A program made the translations under genes and the position numbers. Under the pieces are notes generated by a model. The model saw nothing but the letters and a program-made list of their open reading frames with translations, made no database searches and had not been told where the DNA came from. Of a stretch of 64,000 bases of DNA, positions 3,744-38,502 are shown piece after piece; position 1 is the stretch's first letter, and every line of letters begins with the position of its first letter. Source of the DNA: a virus (Duplodnaviria > Caudoviricetes); IMG/VR virus record IMGVR_UViG_3300025678_000009, positions 1 through 64,000 of that record; one strand, 5' to 3'.

Positions 3744-4037
3744 TTAATTTAATGAAATATTATCAATTATTTGTTTAAATTTACAGGGTTTGTTTTCAAA
3801 CATTTTAATCTGCGAATTTATTATAGATATTTGAGTTGCTATAAGTTTTGTTCTTTCTTTACTTTGTAGGTATCTTTTTATACTCTCTAAATTCTCTATT
3901 GTCTGATTACAATAATTATCTCCCTCTGGTTTATTATGTCTATTTATTCTTGGTGAACCATAGTGGCATGTTAAACATAAACCATTTTCAAATTCACAAG
4001 GACATGTAGCACTATATCCACAATTAGAACATTTCAT
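3744..4037 (-). CDS. Hypothetical Cys-rich protein
   Basis: N-terminal CxxC...CxC...CxxCH; tightly packed in the operon. Confidence 0.55.
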   Translation of the reverse strand: MKCSNCGYSATCPCEFENGLCLTCHYGSPRINRHNKPEGDNYCNQTIENLESIKRYLQSKERTKLIATQISIINSQIKMFENKPCKFKQIIDNISLN

Positions 4038-4577
4038 TTAAAAACAATTACAGTTTGAAGAAAATTCATCTAACATTACATTTGCATAATCATATAACTC
4101 TATGGATTTTTTGTATTTTCCACAATCAGCCATATACTTAGCAGCATCAATAATATCTTTAATTTCTCTTAGTTTTTGTAACTCTTCTAAATATTTTCTC
4201 TTAGCACATCTATCTATTTGTAAAGAGCAATATAAATTATGCCATTTTATTAATTGTTTTGTATTTCTTAGGAATGTATACTCTACAAATAATTTATCAT
4301 TAGGACATATTGAATACTTAATAGTCCAAATACCATCTGGCAATTCTGATAAATTATCAGATTGCTTTGTATTTGTAATGTTAAGAGTATTTGAATTTAT
4401 AATAAATGAAAAGTTCTTTCCAACTGGTATAGAAAAATATTGATTAGAACCTGGATATTGTAAATCCAATTTACCATTAGTGGGATTAATATCTGGGTTA
4501 TACCATGATGCATCCTTAACTATAAGAATTTTTGGGTTTAAAATACTTTCTATATAAATGTCTAATTGTGATATCAT
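4038..4577 (-). CDS. Putative virion protein (tail hub/adaptor-like)
   Basis: Beta-rich N-terminus ending in LPDGIWTIKYSICP, then a helical C-terminus; position in the structural operon. Confidence 0.5.
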   Translation of the reverse strand: MISQLDIYIESILNPKILIVKDASWYNPDINPTNGKLDLQYPGSNQYFSIPVGKNFSFIINSNTLNITNTKQSDNLSELPDGIWTIKYSICPNDKLFVEYTFLRNTKQLIKWHNLYCSLQIDRCAKRKYLEELQKLREIKDIIDAAKYMADCGKYKKSIELYDYANVMLDEFSSNCNCF

Positions 4578-33425: not shown

Positions 33426-34421
33426 ATGAACAAAAAGATAAAAATATTAACATTAGTAAATTTAGGGGGGAGTAAATACCATAGAGTAATTATTCCCCTC
33501 GATTTATTAGACAAAGAAAAGTACGAAGTGGTATATCTCAATGAAAAGTTTGTAATAGAACAATCTGTAAAAGATATAGATTATTTATATATTCATTGGA
33601 GACAACATACAAAATGCATATACCTTTCTTTATGGAAAGAAAAATATGGGTTCAAAATTATCCAAGATATAGATGATTATTGGGTATTGCCTCATAATCA
33701 CTACGCTCAAAAAAGAATTACTGAAATAAAAAATCAATTATTTGATCAACTTACTCTTGCAGATATTGTTTTATGCTCAACACAATTTTTAGTGGACAAA
33801 TGTCAAAAATTTAATGACAATTGTCATCTCAGAGAAAATTATATACCTATAGATTACCAACAATTTCAACCTGAATTCATAAAGGTTGAAAATAGAAAAC
33901 CAACTATAGGTATATGTGGTTCTTTGAGTCATTATGACGATTGGATGTCTATAAGAAATCAATTAAAAAGAATACAAAGTTTAGATAAATACTTTGACTT
34001 TGTAGTTGCAGGTTATGCTGATGAAAATAAAAGTTCTAAAGACAGATGGGATAAAATAGTAAGATTATTTAAAAATCCTAAAGTTTATAGACATCTTCCT
34101 GTAAATCAATACATTAATTTCTATAAACACATTGATATTTTATTAGCTCCTTTAGAAGTAAATGAATTCAATAAATCTAAAAGTGGTTTAAAGATATTAG
34201 AAGCTGGAGTAAAATCTACTATTACGCTTTCTAATAATCTATATAGAGAAAAAGGTATTGATACCTATTTATCTGTAGATGATAAATCTTATTTTGAACA
34301 CTTAAGTGAATTAAAAAATATAGATATATTAAATGATTATAAACAATCATTTTATCAATTAATAATAGAAAAAAACAAACAACTTCAAATAACTAATCAA
34401 TTAGATAAATTTTTGATATGA
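33426..34421 (+). CDS. GT-B (family 4-like) glycosyltransferase
   Basis: GSKYHRVIIP...IIQDIDDYW...ADIVLCST...DILLAPLEVNEFNKSKSGLKILEAG; -7 box TATATTTG at 33414-33421. Confidence 0.8.
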   Translation: MNKKIKILTLVNLGGSKYHRVIIPLDLLDKEKYEVVYLNEKFVIEQSVKDIDYLYIHWRQHTKCIYLSLWKEKYGFKIIQDIDDYWVLPHNHYAQKRITEIKNQLFDQLTLADIVLCSTQFLVDKCQKFNDNCHLRENYIPIDYQQFQPEFIKVENRKPTIGICGSLSHYDDWMSIRNQLKRIQSLDKYFDFVVAGYADENKSSKDRWDKIVRLFKNPKVYRHLPVNQYINFYKHIDILLAPLEVNEFNKSKSGLKILEAGVKSTITLSNNLYREKGIDTYLSVDDKSYFEHLSELKNIDILNDYKQSFYQLIIEKNKQLQITNQLDKFLI

Positions 34422-34567
34422 AAGTAAAGTTTCTAAACATGTGTTCAAGAAAAGATAACGGGACACTATTTTTTGCAATCCTGCCAACAATAACTATAGC
34501 ATCTAATAAAAATCAAAATTATTTGTATTTTGCTTGGTTAAATTATTTAATCGTAATAGAGATATAA
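34418..34567 (+). CDS. Small hypothetical protein (49 aa)
   Basis: ATGA overlap with the glycosyltransferase; ...FAILPTITI...YFAWLNYLIVIEI. Confidence 0.4.
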   Translation: MKVKFLNMCSRKDNGTLFFAILPTITIASNKNQNYLYFAWLNYLIVIEI

Positions 34568-34653
34568 ATTTTAAAGAAACACAAATATGTCAAACGAAGA
34601 ACAAAACGGCTTTTTTTGCCAATACATTGTTAGCAGCAGTAACGGATTTAAAA

Positions 34654-34842
34654 ATGGAACATTCAAAACAAGAAAAAGAAATTTACGAATTAGCAGAACT
34701 TTTGATGCAGTCTGAAAACTTAGAAGCAAGTGCAACTATCCTTCGTGATTTTGCTGAAAAATGTTACCAAGAAGGTGCAATAGATGCTCAAAATGATGCG
34801 GCAAAAGAAATACGTGAACACTATGTAGAAGGTGGTCGGTAG
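34654..34842 (+). CDS. Cassette A ORF (62 aa, hypothetical)
   Basis: MEHSKQEKEIYELAELL...EGGR; the TAG stop overlaps the cassette end GTTATTGCTGCTAAC. Confidence 0.65.
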   Translation: MEHSKQEKEIYELAELLMQSENLEASATILRDFAEKCYQEGAIDAQNDAAKEIREHYVEGGR

Positions 34843-34849
34843 TTATTGC

Positions 34850-34926
34850 TGCTAACGGGATGCAGCTATACGCAGTTGTGTGTAGGATTTGTGCGGTGGG
34901 AAAATTGCGTATAGGTGCTGTTATAT
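34850..34926 (+). other. attC-like site 1 (77 bp)
   Basis: TGCTAAC...GTTATAT; arms GCAGCTATACGCAGTT (34862-34877) / AATTGCGTATAGGTGC (34903-34918). Confidence 0.8.
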
Positions 34927-35021
34927 GAAGTAGGGATTATTTAGCAGAAACTTCATTTGGAACACGAAAATAAATTTAAAATAAAAGCCTTGGGCGGGCT
35001 TCGTAAAACCCAATAAATAAA

Positions 35022-35309
35022 ATGGATAAATTATCTGACGCACCATTAGAGTCAATGGTTGCACCAATACAAAGAGAGCCTAAAATGGGCAAGGTTTACA
35101 TCGGAACAAAAGTAATCCGTGCAGAACCTATGAGTAATGAAGCGTGGCTACGTTCACAAAACAAATGGCAGGAAGGACAAGAAACTGCTGGTGATGGCTA
35201 TAAAGTTCAATACGAAGATGGTTACTTATCTTGGTCGCCTAAGCACGTTTTTGAACGCTGTTATCGTGAGCTTACGCCACAAGAAGTAGGAATGGTAATC
35301 GAGTATTAA
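35022..35309 (+). CDS. Cassette B ORF, widespread phage domain (YIGTKVIRAEP...GYKVQYEDGYLSWSPKHVFE)
   Basis: Recognisable motif of a domain often fused to DUF2829 or other small phage domains. Confidence 0.7.
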   Translation: MDKLSDAPLESMVAPIQREPKMGKVYIGTKVIRAEPMSNEAWLRSQNKWQEGQETAGDGYKVQYEDGYLSWSPKHVFERCYRELTPQEVGMVIEY

Positions 35310-35382
35310 TTATCAGTGCGGTGGGGCTTTTATTTTAAATTTCTAAACGAAATGCTTAATCGAAGCTCTACCGTCCTATTTC

Positions 35383-35515
35383 ATATAACGGTAAACGGCT
35401 ATGCTTAGTGCCGATTTTGAAAGACTAAGCTAATTTTAAACAACAAATTTTTATATGGAAAATACAGGATTATTTAACGCAGAAGGTAAGGCATTGAGCA
35501 TAGCCGATGTTATGG
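35383..35515 (+). other. attC-like site 2 (133 bp)
   Basis: ATATAAC...GTTATGG; arms CGGCTATGCTTAGTGCC (35396-35412) / GGCATTGAGCATAGCCG (35490-35506). Confidence 0.8.
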
Positions 35516-35664
35516 CTATGTTGCCAACCGCAATGATTAACAGAGTTGAAGTGATTGACGAAAATGGCAGGAGCTACGTTAATTGGAAACCAGCAAACAG
35601 AACCGAATTACAGGTGCAAGATAATGGCAGAACGCTAAAAGTATTCGTGTCGCAAGGCAATTAG
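35455..35664 (+). CDS. Cassette C ORF (69 aa), start codon inside attC 2
   Basis: INRVEVIDENGRSYVNW...ELQVQDNGRTLKVFV; stop TAG abuts CCATAAC. Confidence 0.7.
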   Translation: MENTGLFNAEGKALSIADVMAMLPTAMINRVEVIDENGRSYVNWKPANRTELQVQDNGRTLKVFVSQGN

Positions 35665-35767
35665 CCATAACGTTTTGCGGCTTGGTGTCTGTTATTTTGC
35701 CTTGCAGACATTTCAAGTTTTAGATAAATTTAATAGGTAAAATAATAGCACTAAGCCGCTGTTAGTG
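35665..35767 (+). other. attC-like site 3 (103 bp)
   Basis: CCATAAC...GTTAGTG; arms GCGGCTTGGTGTCTGTTATTTTGCC (35677-35701) / GGTAAAATAATAGCACTAAGCCGC (35736-35759), with one bulged T. Confidence 0.85.
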
Positions 35768-35791
35768 GCTGGTGCGGTAAATTAAACTAAA

Positions 35792-36058
35792 ATGAAACAG
35801 ATAGACAAAACTTTCTATTCTCTTTGCGAAGAAATAGACGATTTAAAAGAAGCAGTTGAATATTGGAAAACAATGTATGAAACTGAAAGAGCAACTAACA
35901 ATAAGATGCTTAATGATAATTTAGAAACTGCGAAACAAGGCGTTGCAAATGCTTTAAGGTTTGCTCTTTCGGTTTCAGATGACGAAAATGGAAACTTGGT
36001 TATTAGTAAAGAGAATAGAAAAGATTTAGCAGAAAATTGGATTGGAAGCGGTAAGTAG
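35792..36058 (+). CDS. Cassette D ORF (88 aa, coiled-coil hypothetical)
   Basis: Stop TAG overlaps GCACTTGCCACTAAC. Confidence 0.7.
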   Translation: MKQIDKTFYSLCEEIDDLKEAVEYWKTMYETERATNNKMLNDNLETAKQGVANALRFALSVSDDENGNLVISKENRKDLAENWIGSGK

Positions 36059-36065
36059 CACTTGC

Positions 36066-36198
36066 CACTAACGGTTCACGGCTTGTTGTCAGGCGGGGAT
36101 TTAGAACCACAAATTTTCAATAAACAATAAAACTTAATAAAATGAGCGAAATTTCAAACAACCACGAAACCGCCAATGGCACAAAACCCGTGTTATCG
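36066..36198 (+). other. attC-like site 4 (133 bp)
   Basis: CACTAAC...GTTATCG; arms ACGGCTTGTTGTCAGGCGG (36078-36096) / CCGCCAATGGCACAAAACCCGT (36170-36191). Confidence 0.75.
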
Positions 36199-36540
36199 GC
36201 TGTTTTTCTTCATCAGAAAATCGAAAAGTTAATCCCATTTATAAGTGAGGAATTTATCACTTATCCACTTTTGGAGGAAGGCAAATACATACCTTTCTTA
36301 AAATGCTGGCAAAAAGCAGATACGGAAAACAAATGTACTCGGTTGTCAAATAGATTAAATAAGCACTTTGAAAAAACAGGTTATGAAATTTCATTTATTG
36401 GCAAAGAACATAGAAGCGTTATTCACGAATTTTACCTTTACCCAAAGTGGAAAGAATTAAAAAACGGTTCTTATAAATTTGTCAAAAAAGATTGGTCTAT
36501 TGAGGAAATGTTGGATTTGTTGGGTTATGTCCTAAAATAG
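36142..36540 (+). CDS. Cassette E ORF (132 aa), start codon inside attC 4
   Basis: N-terminal MSEISNNHETANGTKPVLSAV is encoded by the attC right arm; stop TAG abuts CCGATAAC. Confidence 0.7.
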   Translation: MSEISNNHETANGTKPVLSAVFLHQKIEKLIPFISEEFITYPLLEEGKYIPFLKCWQKADTENKCTRLSNRLNKHFEKTGYEISFIGKEHRSVIHEFYLYPKWKELKNGSYKFVKKDWSIEEMLDLLGYVLK

Positions 36541-36606
36541 CCGATAACGGTATCGGGCTTGGCGCATGTATTTTTGGCGATTTTGAAACGATAAATTTTA
36601 AATAAA

Positions 36607-36714
36607 ATGGAAACAGCAAGAGAATTTACATTAAGGAAGTACCCTGAATTATGGGGTAAAAATCACAACGCAGGTGATATTATCAGAGCAATGGAAGAAT
36701 ATGCGAATTGGTAG
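36607..36714 (+). CDS. Short ORF (35 aa) after the truncated fifth attC
   Basis: METAREFTLRKYPELWGKNHNAGDIIRAMEEYANW with A-rich start context. Confidence 0.4.
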   Translation: METAREFTLRKYPELWGKNHNAGDIIRAMEEYANW

Positions 36715-36769
36715 AACGCTTCTATCATTGTCGATAGCACACTGAAAATATTTTTTTAATAAATAACAA

Positions 36770-37420
36770 ATGAATTATAAAATATACTCTATAGTTTATG
36801 ATGAAAATCAATTGCACGAATATGAAAAATATGATAATTCTCACATAAAGAGTTATGAAGATAAAAGCTATTTATTTGAATATAATTGTCTTATAGATAT
36901 TCTTGATAATTTTAATATAAATGAAGATTATTTAGGCATTTTTTCACACAAATTTCCATTCAAAACAGGATTATTCAAAAAAAAGTTATATTGGCTTTTA
37001 GAGAATAATCCTGATTTTGATATTTATGGACTATGTCCTCAACATGTTTTAAAGGGACAATATTTGGATTTTACTGAGAAAATGCATCCAGGATTTAAAA
37101 AAATATTTTATTCTTTATGTAAAGATTTAAACTTAAAAGTAGAAGAACCTAAATATGTTATTTATAGTAATTTTATGATAATGAAAACTTTCATTTATAA
37201 AGAATTTGTAAACGAAATTATTAAGCCTGCTATTTATTTATTAGAAACTAAATATAAAGAAGAAGCTTGGAAAAATAGTAATTATAATGGTTTGGAAAAA
37301 TCTAAACTAAAAATGTATACAGGGCTTGATTATTACCCTATGATAACCTTTATATTAGAACGACTTATCTCAATCTTTGTTTTAAATAATCCTAAATATT
37401 CTTTTAAAAATCTTATTTAA
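36770..37420 (+). CDS. DUF4422-like glycosyltransferase
   Basis: YLGIFSHKF...YSNFMIMKT...ITFILERLISIFV. Confidence 0.65.
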   Translation: MNYKIYSIVYDENQLHEYEKYDNSHIKSYEDKSYLFEYNCLIDILDNFNINEDYLGIFSHKFPFKTGLFKKKLYWLLENNPDFDIYGLCPQHVLKGQYLDFTEKMHPGFKKIFYSLCKDLNLKVEEPKYVIYSNFMIMKTFIYKEFVNEIIKPAIYLLETKYKEEAWKNSNYNGLEKSKLKMYTGLDYYPMITFILERLISIFVLNNPKYSFKNLI

Positions 37421-37479: not shown

Positions 37480-38502
37480 ATGAGTAAGAAAAAATGGACA
37501 AATGAAAAAATAGAATGGTTAAAACAAAATTATGAAAATAAATCTATATCAAATTATGATATTGTGAAATATTTAAATATTGACTGGATAACAATAACTA
37601 AAAAAGCATCTCTTTTAAATCTAAAAAGAAAATTTAGAGAAAATTCTAAGTTATTTAATTTTAATACTACTATATGTGATGATTATAAAACAGGTAAAAG
37701 TATACCTAAATTAGCAATTGAATATAATTGTTCTAAAGATAGCATAAGACAAATTCTTATTAAAAATAACATTAATAGAAGATCTGCCCTAGAAAATAAA
37801 AGACAATTCTCTTACGATAAAAATTATTTTGAAAAAATTGATTCAAAAGATAAAGCCTATTTTTTAGGTTTATTATATGCTGATGGGAACGTGTTTGCTA
37901 AAACAGGATCTGTTCAATTATCTCTTCAAGAAAAAGATGGTTATATTTTAGAAAGATTTAAGGAATATATTAATTATGAAGGAAATCTCAAATATAAAAA
38001 TATAAAAGCAAATAAAAAAAATTCACAGAATATGTGGCTTTTTAGAATAACTAGTATAGAACTATGCAAACAATTAATAAAATTAGGTTGTGTTCCAAGA
38101 AAATCCCTTATTTTAACTTTTCCAACAGAAGAACAAGTTCCAAAAGAATTTCAATCTCATTTTATTAGAGGGTTTTTTGACGGAGATGGGTGTATTTATA
38201 TCAGCAATAAAAGCATAAGTTCATCTTTCACATCAACAAAAGAATTTTTGCAGGAAGTACAAAAAATTTTAATCAAAGAAGTTTCTTTAAATCTAACAAA
38301 ATTAACTCGTAAAAAAGCAAATAAAAATACTTATAGTTTCAATATAAGTGGATTTTACCCCTTAAAACGTTTATATGAATATTTATATAAAGATTGTGAT
38401 GATTTGTATTTAGAAAGAAAAAAAGAAAAAATCCATGAATTTACTCCACAAAGAAAGGAAAGAAAAACTTCTGAAAAATATAAAATGAGTTTAATTGTTT
38501 AG
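37480..38502 (+). CDS. Free-standing two-motif LAGLIDADG homing endonuclease
   Basis: AYFLGLLYADG and HFIRGFFDGDGCI motifs; N-terminal HTH-like repeats. Confidence 0.9.
   Translation: MSKKKWTNEKIEWLKQNYENKSISNYDIVKYLNIDWITITKKASLLNLKRKFRENSKLFNFNTTICDDYKTGKSIPKLAIEYNCSKDSIRQILIKNNINRRSALENKRQFSYDKNYFEKIDSKDKAYFLGLLYADGNVFAKTGSVQLSLQEKDGYILERFKEYINYEGNLKYKNIKANKKNSQNMWLFRITSIELCKQLIKLGCVPRKSLILTFPTEEQVPKEFQSHFIRGFFDGDGCIYISNKSISSSFTSTKEFLQEVQKILIKEVSLNLTKLTRKKANKNTYSFNISGFYPLKRLYEYLYKDCDDLYLERKKEKIHEFTPQRKERKTSEKYKMSLIV

Follow-up and report, generated by a model that had tools for sequence, protein, structure and literature searches.

Integrons are generally viewed as having arisen in bacteria and as relying on a single specialised integrase. 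In T4-type phages, promoter early stem-loop (PeSL) cassettes consist of small accessory genes flanked by repeated stem-loops and form hyperplastic regions that differ between close relatives; no recombinase is dedicated to their shuffling, which is attributed to homologous recombination. Clusters of attC sites have also been described in virulent phages, where they were treated as integron attC sites (Qi et al. 2023, PMC9892861). Here we describe an island of about 2.1 kb (34584 to ~36750) in which small genes alternate with hairpins. It lies in a 64,000-nucleotide (nt) stretch of DNA, hereafter the window, that covers positions 1 to 64,000 of the IMG/VR record IMGVR_UViG_3300025678_000009, a caudovirus contig.

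We interpret the island as an orphan array, that is, one without its recombinase, made of five complete cassettes and one degenerate cassette, and we assign it to an integron-like system of Bacteroidota phages and genome assemblies; the probability of this reading is roughly 85%. A preliminary description of the window had likewise proposed a phage-borne, integron-like array driven by a Bacteroidota-type tyrosine recombinase, and its support comes from the relatives of the island, whose arrays abut a Xer-like recombinase. The family of sites appears to be large and unnamed: besides PMC9892861, no published description of it was found in a literature coverage that is itself incomplete.

Paired ends and hairpin sites

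Five small open reading frames (ORFs), A to E, each belong to a module whose first bases (GTTA...) are complementary to its last (...TAAC), and all five end pairs claimed in the preliminary description are present (Table 1). Such pairing is about 1000-fold above chance: when GTTA.../...TAAC pairs with at least 13 of 15 positions matched and 100-600 nt apart are counted, four fall in the 2.3-kb block, against a mean of 0.0035 and a maximum of 1 in 2000 shuffles of the block. The remaining 79 kb of the contig contains one such pair (63022/63334), which is AT-rich, lies within two ordinary genes, and was taken as chance rather than as a further cassette. The positions that had been counted as mismatches in the arms are not noise: they correspond to two traits that recur throughout the family, a G.T at pair 11 and, often, a mismatch at pair 10.

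Imperfect hairpins had been reported between the cassettes, and this holds for the first three (sites 1-3, numbered as the hairpins in Table 1); site 4 has an imperfect stem that folds poorly, and a fifth site has no hairpin. Sites 1 and 3 fold far better than their shuffles, and site 2 forms a 17-bp stem with a long loop (z -1.3). At all three it is the top, ORF-sense strand that folds better, and not the bottom strand, whose folding had been proposed as a check. The two outer flanks of a hairpin indeed match no better than random pairs do (3.7 vs 3.9 of 12 positions complementary), and the spacers are asymmetric, as described, with the longer one on the left; across the family the left spacer is 5 nt in 79 of 127 sites and the right spacer 1 nt in 82 of 127. 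In a search of Rfam with E up to 10, the hairpins gave only chance, miRNA-like matches.

The block also stands out by composition, in agreement with the preliminary description. Its G+C content is 0.33-0.41 vs 0.21-0.29 in the flanks, returning to the phage level past ~36750, and its CpG observed/expected ratio is 1.11 vs 0.32. TAG is the stop codon of four of the five ORFs (A, C, D, and E) and of a sixth small ORF (5 of 6 in all), vs 8 of 106 ORFs in the whole contig. Over the whole contig, G+C is 27% and the CpG observed/expected ratio 0.32; outside 34600-36750 the phage backbone shows strong CpG depletion at these same values. The array in this 27% G+C phage is recent foreign DNA.

Sites of this kind are widely distributed. 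The 19-mer AAACCCGTGTTATCGGCTG, which joins the right arm of hairpin 4 to the beginning of module E, has exact copies in 43 viral contigs, in which no fewer than eight different genes follow it, and in 44 stretches of bacterial assemblies. Nearly all of the latter come from Bacteroidota, with the isolates Cecembia rubra DSM 28057 and Sphingobacterium tenebrionis PU5-4 among them. A strict detector (TAACG, spacer, stem, loop, stem, GTTA) run on the fetched loci returned 136 sites in the real sequences vs 1 in shuffles, and within each locus all sites lie on one strand. An earlier hairpin detector was dropped as too loose, with 323 sites on both strands vs 101 in one-strand shuffles. In the window, sites 1-3 pass the strict detector, whereas site 4, the left-arm-only site, and the remnant at the left edge fail; none is found outside the block. 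Cultured carriers comprise C. rubra (L089, four sites in 8 kb), S. tenebrionis (L081, one site), and the Polaribacter phage P12002L (L104 30008-38936, four sites). The preliminary description had suggested a search of Bacteroidota for the same sites beside a tyrosine recombinase; the 44 bacterial stretches carry the sites. Behind the sites of L086 and L092 stands a related recombinase, encoded on the opposite strand. Cargo genes in relatives encode C5 and N6/N4 DNA methyltransferases and an ADP-ribosyltransferase domain.

The module ends of the family have a fixed anatomy. In 72 distinct modules, the module's own ends form a stem of exactly 15 bp, with nothing paired beyond it; because the two ends are hundreds of bases apart, this pairing was counted by script. 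Pairs 1-9 are Watson-Crick in 97-100% of the modules and pairs 12-15 in 83-96%, pair 10 is mismatched in 38%, and pair 11 is G.T in 93%, with the G in the 5' arm and the T in the 3' arm. All four pair types are found at the variable positions, as expected of covariation, and own ends match at 7.4 of 12 positions vs 3.9 of 12 for the ends of other modules. For example, the cassette E of L003, which lies in an array of like sites, has the arms GTTATAGGTTG.../...AACCTATAAC vs GTTATCGGCTG.../...AGCCGATAAC in the window, that is, two compensatory double changes. The 5' arms share the consensus GTTAnnnGCnG and the 3' arms ATTGCnnnTAAC, and a similar half-site, ATT..GCC.AAAC, is found in the right arm of the hairpin, 4 nt from GTTA. 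The hairpin stems, read on the sense strand, contain 238 G.T vs 56 A.C pairs. A family cassette on the ORF strand is composed of a 5-nt spacer, a left arm, a loop of 25-80 nt, a right arm, 1 nt, and a small ORF boxed between the two arm consensus sequences. This layout is seen in the window at sites 1-3, site 4 being imperfect but homologous and the sixth unit degenerate, and all five window modules carry the covarying GTTA/TAAC stem with G.T at pair 11, module C by way of a one-base bulge. Moreover, pieces of the island are also found in other arrays, some of them linked to a recombinase: hairpins 1 and 4, cassette E, and both ends of cassette B have counterparts there at 74-97% identity.

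Recombinase, crossover point and mobile unit

A tyrosine recombinase is encoded in 7 of the 43 viral records with the 19-mer. Five of these are strong matches, each encoded immediately behind the array and in its orientation, and in four of the five the 3' arm of the last module ends 10-50 nt ahead of the recombinase gene. These proteins are 265-298 amino acids (aa) long, and their nearest relatives are XerA, XerC, and XerD; the best model is that of archaeal XerA (NF040815), which they match under its cut-off. The integron integrase model TIGR02249 gives 133-156 bits in two pieces, with a cut-off of 265. Residues 196-219 of the query align with residues 180-254 of VchIntIA (2A3V), 23 residues vs 74, and thus the IntI-specific insertion is absent from the family recombinase. 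The near-identical Polaribacter phages Freya_1 to Freya_10 (L055 = Freya_1, L054 = Freya_10) differ by 0-4 kb of small genes upstream of their integrase. They were set aside as evidence, since this integrase is 38% identical to the family recombinase but the detector finds no hairpin sites.

As an independent test, loci were fetched by the recombinase protein alone, taking the best 80 of 217 viral contigs with relatives. These 80 loci contain 381 sites upstream on the recombinase strand, 0 on the opposite strand, and 16 downstream (four loci). Where at least 3 kb of upstream sequence is available, sites are present in 46 of 47 loci, and 41 have three or more. A partner site, TAAC|TATNATATATA, stands beside the recombinase in 43 of 52 distinct loci, most of the others having a near-match; it is also written TAAC|TATTATATATA and after the last TAAC reads TAT(T/C/A)ATATATA. 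Among 273 distinct units of recombinase-linked arrays, the longest open frame is on the array strand in 238 and on the opposite strand in 29, with 6 ties, and 97 have an ORF opened by an ATG in the hairpin. Secondary arrays apart from the recombinase also occur in relatives, as in the four loci with downstream sites and in L053.

The crossover point can be read from contigs of different samples that encode identical recombinases. Their DNA is identical up to the base after TAAC and then diverges (L153/L158 vs L157 vs L159; L154 vs L156; L155 vs L160). In addition, L157 equals L159 plus one hairpin-first unit: the cassette next to the recombinase in L159 is displaced outward by about 800 nt in L157, where its TAAC is followed by the spacer and left arm of a hairpin. 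One unit of hairpin, ORF, and TAAC was thus inserted at TAAC|TAT. Taken together, the breakpoints and the extra unit indicate that a cassette consists of a hairpin and the ORF behind it, with the crossover at TAAC. The preliminary description had placed the crossover at G|TT and had taken the GTTA...TAAC box as the unit, with the hairpins as spacers; both proposals have to be replaced, as the junction is the TAAC core, in or just 3' of AAC, and the hairpin belongs to the unit. It had also suggested comparing related phages for cassette number or order; content differs between contigs with identical recombinases.

Further junctions were seen outside these loci. The complete 37.8-kb phage L002 (IMGVR_UViG_3300033069_001069), which has many in-frame TGA codons and is probably recoded, carries a single cassette E at 3905-4431 that ends TAAC|AAATC, and the target reads CAAC|AAATC. 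The hairpin of this cassette has only its loop and right arm. A stretch of 62 bp of target, comprising the region upstream of the next gene and its first five codons, is duplicated on both sides, and thereby cassette E borrows the start of that gene. In the window, matches to contigs of other sludge runs start or stop at 34857, 35668, and 36073-36076, just past TAAC. All matching of other runs to the window used assembled contigs only, and joints with a short side may come from other arrays.

Several features of the sites would also suit regulatory repeats, that is, PeSL-like terminators, promoters, or leaders, or stems for RNA processing, that are shuffled by homologous recombination next to a recombinase that is coincidental or an ordinary integrase. 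Hairpin loops contain start codons and A-rich leaders, the G.T bias is to the sense strand, which is the mRNA, hairpins of 90% identity stand between unrelated cassettes, and ORF swaps within conserved cassette frames resemble homologous exchange. Such an explanation is nevertheless unlikely, because contigs with identical recombinases break at one four-base core and not at arbitrary points of the shared repeats, the sites go with a single recombinase family, strand, and side, with a conserved partner site at the recombinase end, and homologous exchange needs no cassette-specific, covarying ends. A regulatory role may well coexist with the role in recombination.

For the integron-like reading we propose the following mechanism. 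A cassette would excise as a circle, and its own two ends on the ORF-sense strand would pair into the 15-bp stem with G.T at pair 11. This stem would stack on the hairpin stem, producing a two-fold pseudo-symmetric site for a recombinase dimer, with two half-sites and a wobble pair about 11 bp out in each. The cut would then fall on one strand, within the AAC of TAAC or immediately 3' of it, and this strand would be joined to the site that neighbours the recombinase gene, much as the bottom strand of attC is cut and joined in integrons. Judged by comparison of sequences, such a mechanism appears well supported. Since many cassettes have a start codon in the hairpin loop, each of these brings its own translation start; and since site and gene form one cassette, the puzzle of a site that lends a start codon to the next cassette is settled.

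A number of observations weigh against this interpretation. The 82-kb contig, which represents about 42% of a genome, has no match to the tyrosine recombinase domain PF00589, no match to the Y1 transposase domain PF01797, and no above-chance match to the partner site TAACTATNATATATA. A lone TATCAT at 36723 is insufficient as an attI-like remnant at the right edge of the island. An Xer-like recombinase with its TAAC|TATNATATATA site is therefore not found next to the array here, and a role of the array as a platform for gene acquisition in this phage is something we infer from its relatives. The missing 58% of the genome may, by analogy, hold a recombinase-linked array, because relatives also have secondary arrays away from the recombinase; the array itself may be put to use in trans, or it may be a passive relic. 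Moreover, site 4 has a fold no better than its shuffles (z +0.55), and the fifth site, that of the sixth unit, has a left arm only. No circular cassettes were seen in the assembled contigs, the sole material, which do not show circles, strand, or frequency; the folding strand and the single-strandedness of the DNA are suggested by the wobble bias and by analogy. One contig of the source run omits exactly 815 bp from TAAC to TAAC (34852 to 35668), but its shorter side is 22 nt and maybe from another array, so it carries little weight. Linkage of the hairpin to the module behind it speaks for the hairpin-first unit: the same hairpin with the same downstream and a different upstream module was found in 126 pairs, or 3 when sites used for fishing are left out, and the reverse in 0. 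This linkage is dominated by one hairpin type and by loci fished with the GTTA-side motif. At non-fished sites, both neighbours of a hairpin differ in 20 of 38 informative pairs, and thus exchange also takes place at or inside the hairpin, possibly by homologous recombination.

Units of the island and the host phage

Read as hairpin-first units, the island consists of a remnant hairpin with A, hairpin 1 with B, hairpin 2 with C, hairpin 3 with D, hairpin 4 with E, and a degenerate unit with ORF F (Table 1).

Table 1. Positions in the window of the hairpins, modules and end pairs of the island
Feature	Position	Strand	Details
First-hairpin remnant	34584-34628	+	loop and right arm, left arm missing; ATG at 34587
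Module A	34629-34856	+	ORF A 34654-34842, 62 aa, TAG; sole arm exception G.T at pair 11
Pair A	34629-34643 / 34842-34856	+	14/15
Hairpin 1	34857-34919	+	5-nt spacer; stem 34862-34877 / 34903-34918; DNA fold: top -12.0 kcal/mol, z -4.0; bottom -8.1 kcal/mol, z -2.8
Module B	34920-35389	+	ORF B 35022-35309, 95 aa, TAA
Pair B	34920-34934 / 35375-35389	+	14/15
Hairpin 2	35390-35508	+	stem 35396-35412 / 35490-35506; 17-nt arms 88% complementary; detector score 41; loop contains ORF C start ATG 35455
Module C	35509-35671	+	ORF C 35455-35664, 69 aa, TAG; matches phrog_10600
Pair C	35509-35518 / 35662-35671	+	10/10, then GGCAA/TTGCC past a one-base bulge
Hairpin 3	35672-35760	+	DNA fold: top -19.0 kcal/mol, z -5.9; bottom -13.9 kcal/mol, z -3.1
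Module D	35761-36072	+	ORF D 35792-36058, 88 aa, TAG; T.T at pair 10, G.T at pair 11
Pair D	35761-35775 / 36058-36072	+	13/15
Hairpin 4	36073-36191	+	imperfect stem; loop bears ORF E start ATG 36142
Module E	36192-36548	+	ORF E 36142-36540, 132 aa, TAG; start inside hairpin 4
Pair E	36192-36206 / 36534-36548	+	14/15
Degenerate last unit, right edge	36549-36750	+	spacer, left-arm-like CGGGCTTGGCG, loop with ATG 36607; no right arm, no clear TAAC end
ORF F	36607-36714	+	35 aa, TAG

The remnant at the left edge shares 39 nt at 97% identity with the loop and right arm of a complete site (L034). A run of seven T (34611-34617) shifts its ATG out of the frame of ORF A; other contigs, from three runs, have six T at 34611, and there the frame is restored and the leader is fused with ORF A. 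The ATG of ORF C, of ORF E, and, in these six-T variants, of ORF A lies in the loop of the cassette's own hairpin, and these ORFs read through its right arm and the GTTA box. Other contigs match module A only over 34616-34857, at 4-5x the depth of the flanks. Hairpin 1 is 90% identical to hairpins of L015, L026, and L028, and contigs of other runs begin to match at exactly 35668-35669, beside hairpin 3. Hairpin 4 has 74-76% identity to hairpins of L053, L048, L169, L029, and others, with the 19-mer junction in common.

In module B, additional nested inverted repeats carry the end pairing to about 75 nt. ORF B matches phrog_9467, phrog_872, and phrog_32732; these, like the family matched by ORF C, are phage families with no assigned function. 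Its AlphaFold model (predicted local distance difference test score, pLDDT, 84) is a small Tudor/SH3-like barrel, and the fold matches (Foldseek E 0.14 to Tad2; VIA Z ~5 to the RNA-polymerase-binding Tudor-like domains of Mfd, UvrD, and CarD) are too weak for a claim of function. The non-coding ends of cassette B, about 100 nt on the 5' side (34912-35027) and about 75 nt on the 3' side (35316-35391), are 95-97% identical to L129 6362-6844, a cassette of a recombinase-linked array whose ORF is unrelated to ORF B. From this comparison there appears to be a second level of swapping, within a conserved cassette frame. Contigs of four runs retain the ends of module D and omit 35795 to 36049-36055, and these joints around ORF D suggest that ORFs are swapped inside a kept frame there too. 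Relatives of ORF E, with 85-94% aa identity, are encoded by four viral contigs; the protein atlas gave nothing for it. In a collection of isolate phages, no near relative of the island was found, the sole match being to ORF E, at 68%, in a 462-kb uncultured phage.

The source record, from activated sludge, is 81.7 kb long (~42% complete by estimate) and that of a phage, with genes for a portal, a large terminase, a tail fibre, a DNA polymerase, and RIIA. The left neighbour of the island is a glycosyltransferase gene (33426-34421) and the right neighbour a 216-aa gene without known function, which is followed by a LAGLIDADG endonuclease gene (37480-38502). Contigs of close relatives from two runs omit 204 bp (36987-37192; 68 codons, in frame) inside the 216-aa gene. 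Close relatives of the phage in three other runs share the flanks and have no island: their contigs stop at 34423 and resume at 36753 after other sequence, matching only from past the right edge. The locus is thus variable. An empty site could not be read from viral contigs, in which relatives of the flanking glycosyltransferase are only 30-33% identical.

Comparison with integrons and other systems

The AAC...GTT cores with an imperfect hairpin between them and the co-oriented arrangement raise the question of whether the island is a true integron fragment, that is, a cluster of attC sites lacking an integron integrase (CALIN), with canonical attC sites moved by a host IntI at the G|TT of the 3' core. 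The window does contain three attC-like sites that pass the detector, in a contig without a recombinase, and the general R''/L''...L'/R' plan of attC is present; the geometry, however, is unlike attC, with a 15-bp outer stem formed by the cassette's own ends, a G.T as the eleventh pair, and a 5-nt and a 1-nt spacer. In addition, the enzyme beside the arrays is best matched by archaeal XerA and has the short segment of 23 residues where VchIntIA has 74, with a TIGR02249 score below the cut-off and in two pieces. An IntI integrase is not found either in the window, which has no PF00589 match, or in the family. An order of ORF followed by its own attC, with crossover at G|TT, is contradicted by the hairpin-first unit of L157, in which the hairpin travels with the ORF behind it, and by breakpoints after TAAC. 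No attI was found beside an integrase in the window, and the analogous site is present in the 43 of 52 relative loci described above. A true integron fragment is therefore very unlikely. The preliminary description had taken own-end pairing as the signature of integron cassettes; the layout is integron-like, but the enzyme is not an integron integrase.

One site of the family has already been studied as an attC site. Of six phage sites, IntI1 recombined five but not P12002L_attC1, which was called by HattCI but not by Infernal, in a phage locus termed a CALIN (PMC9892861). P12002L_attC1 is letter-for-letter one of the four family sites in the Polaribacter phage P12002L and lies between two DNA methyltransferase genes. 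Its failure with IntI1 fits a site made for another enzyme. Lastly, non-autonomous single-strand elements (IS200/IS605-type palindrome-associated transposable elements, or elements like miniature inverted-repeat transposable elements or repetitive extragenic palindromes) moved by an HUH/Y1 transposase that targets TAAC would share the hairpin-based ends, the four-base target-like core, and the strand bias, but are hardly credible here, since no Y1 transposase (PF01797) was found in the contig, the arrays pair with a Xer-type tyrosine recombinase, the units insert serially at one site by the recombinase gene and are not scattered, and the sites of the window are confined to one block.

Beyond the identity of the island as an orphan array, a broader proposal has in our view a somewhat better than even chance of being right. 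The family would be a separate, IntI-independent, single-strand "phage integron", in which a Xer-like recombinase acts on the folded sense strand at TAAC and the site doubles as a promoter-proximal leader with the first codons; it would be either a convergent reinvention or a survivor of the transition from Xer to IntI, and would let unrelated phages, a recoded one among them, and Bacteroidota hosts exchange small early and anti-defence genes. If true, a widespread phage look-alike of integrons run by an ordinary Xer-type enzyme would mean that cassette capture through hairpin sites arose more than once, or before IntI. It would also provide an experimental handle on how a recombinase of duplex DNA comes to use folded single strands, and would explain, in part, why large phages of Bacteroidota have mosaic "accessory gene" regions. 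Cultured material for bench work is available in Polaribacter phage P12002L, C. rubra DSM 28057, and S. tenebrionis PU5-4. The array of the window suggests that even phages whose composition is very different (27% G+C, CpG-poor) receive cassettes, and that these can be retained in the absence of the enzyme.

Among known systems, modules of the Xer/dif type, including integrative mobile elements exploiting Xer (IMEX) and the pdif modules of Acinetobacter plasmids, resemble the family in their XerA/XerC/XerD-like enzymes and in having modules between inverted recombinase sites. However, dif-type sites are a fixed 28-bp duplex with a 6-bp centre, whereas the ends of the family are cassette-specific and covarying, with a long hairpin between them, and the cassettes form serial arrays by a dedicated recombinase gene. 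PeSL cassettes, as generally understood, differ from the family, whose junctions fall on one four-base core beside a recombinase. The P12002L array is phage-borne and integrase-less and has methyltransferase cargo, as do relatives of the island; the Xer-like recombinase, the own-end stem, and the TAAC junction are not described in PMC9892861.

Integrons are the closest comparison. Both systems have arrays of co-oriented single-gene cassettes, imperfect hairpins with AAC and GTT cores and two arm pairs, and a structure that is kept while its sequence varies. In both, one end of the array is occupied by a tyrosine recombinase and, adjacent to it, a distinct partner site; new units are added at that end, and orphan arrays without the enzyme occur. 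In contrast to integrons, the enzyme of the family is short and Xer-like without the IntI-specific insertion, its junction lies at the 5' (TAAC) core on the ORF-sense strand, and its outer stem of 15 bp is cassette-specific with a fixed G.T. Furthermore, the site precedes the ORF, and the ORFs point toward a co-directional recombinase downstream, a mirror layout; about one-third of the cassettes start translation inside the site; and the hosts are phages and genomes of Bacteroidota. As the enzyme is not an integron integrase, the system is an analogue of integrons and not a member of them.

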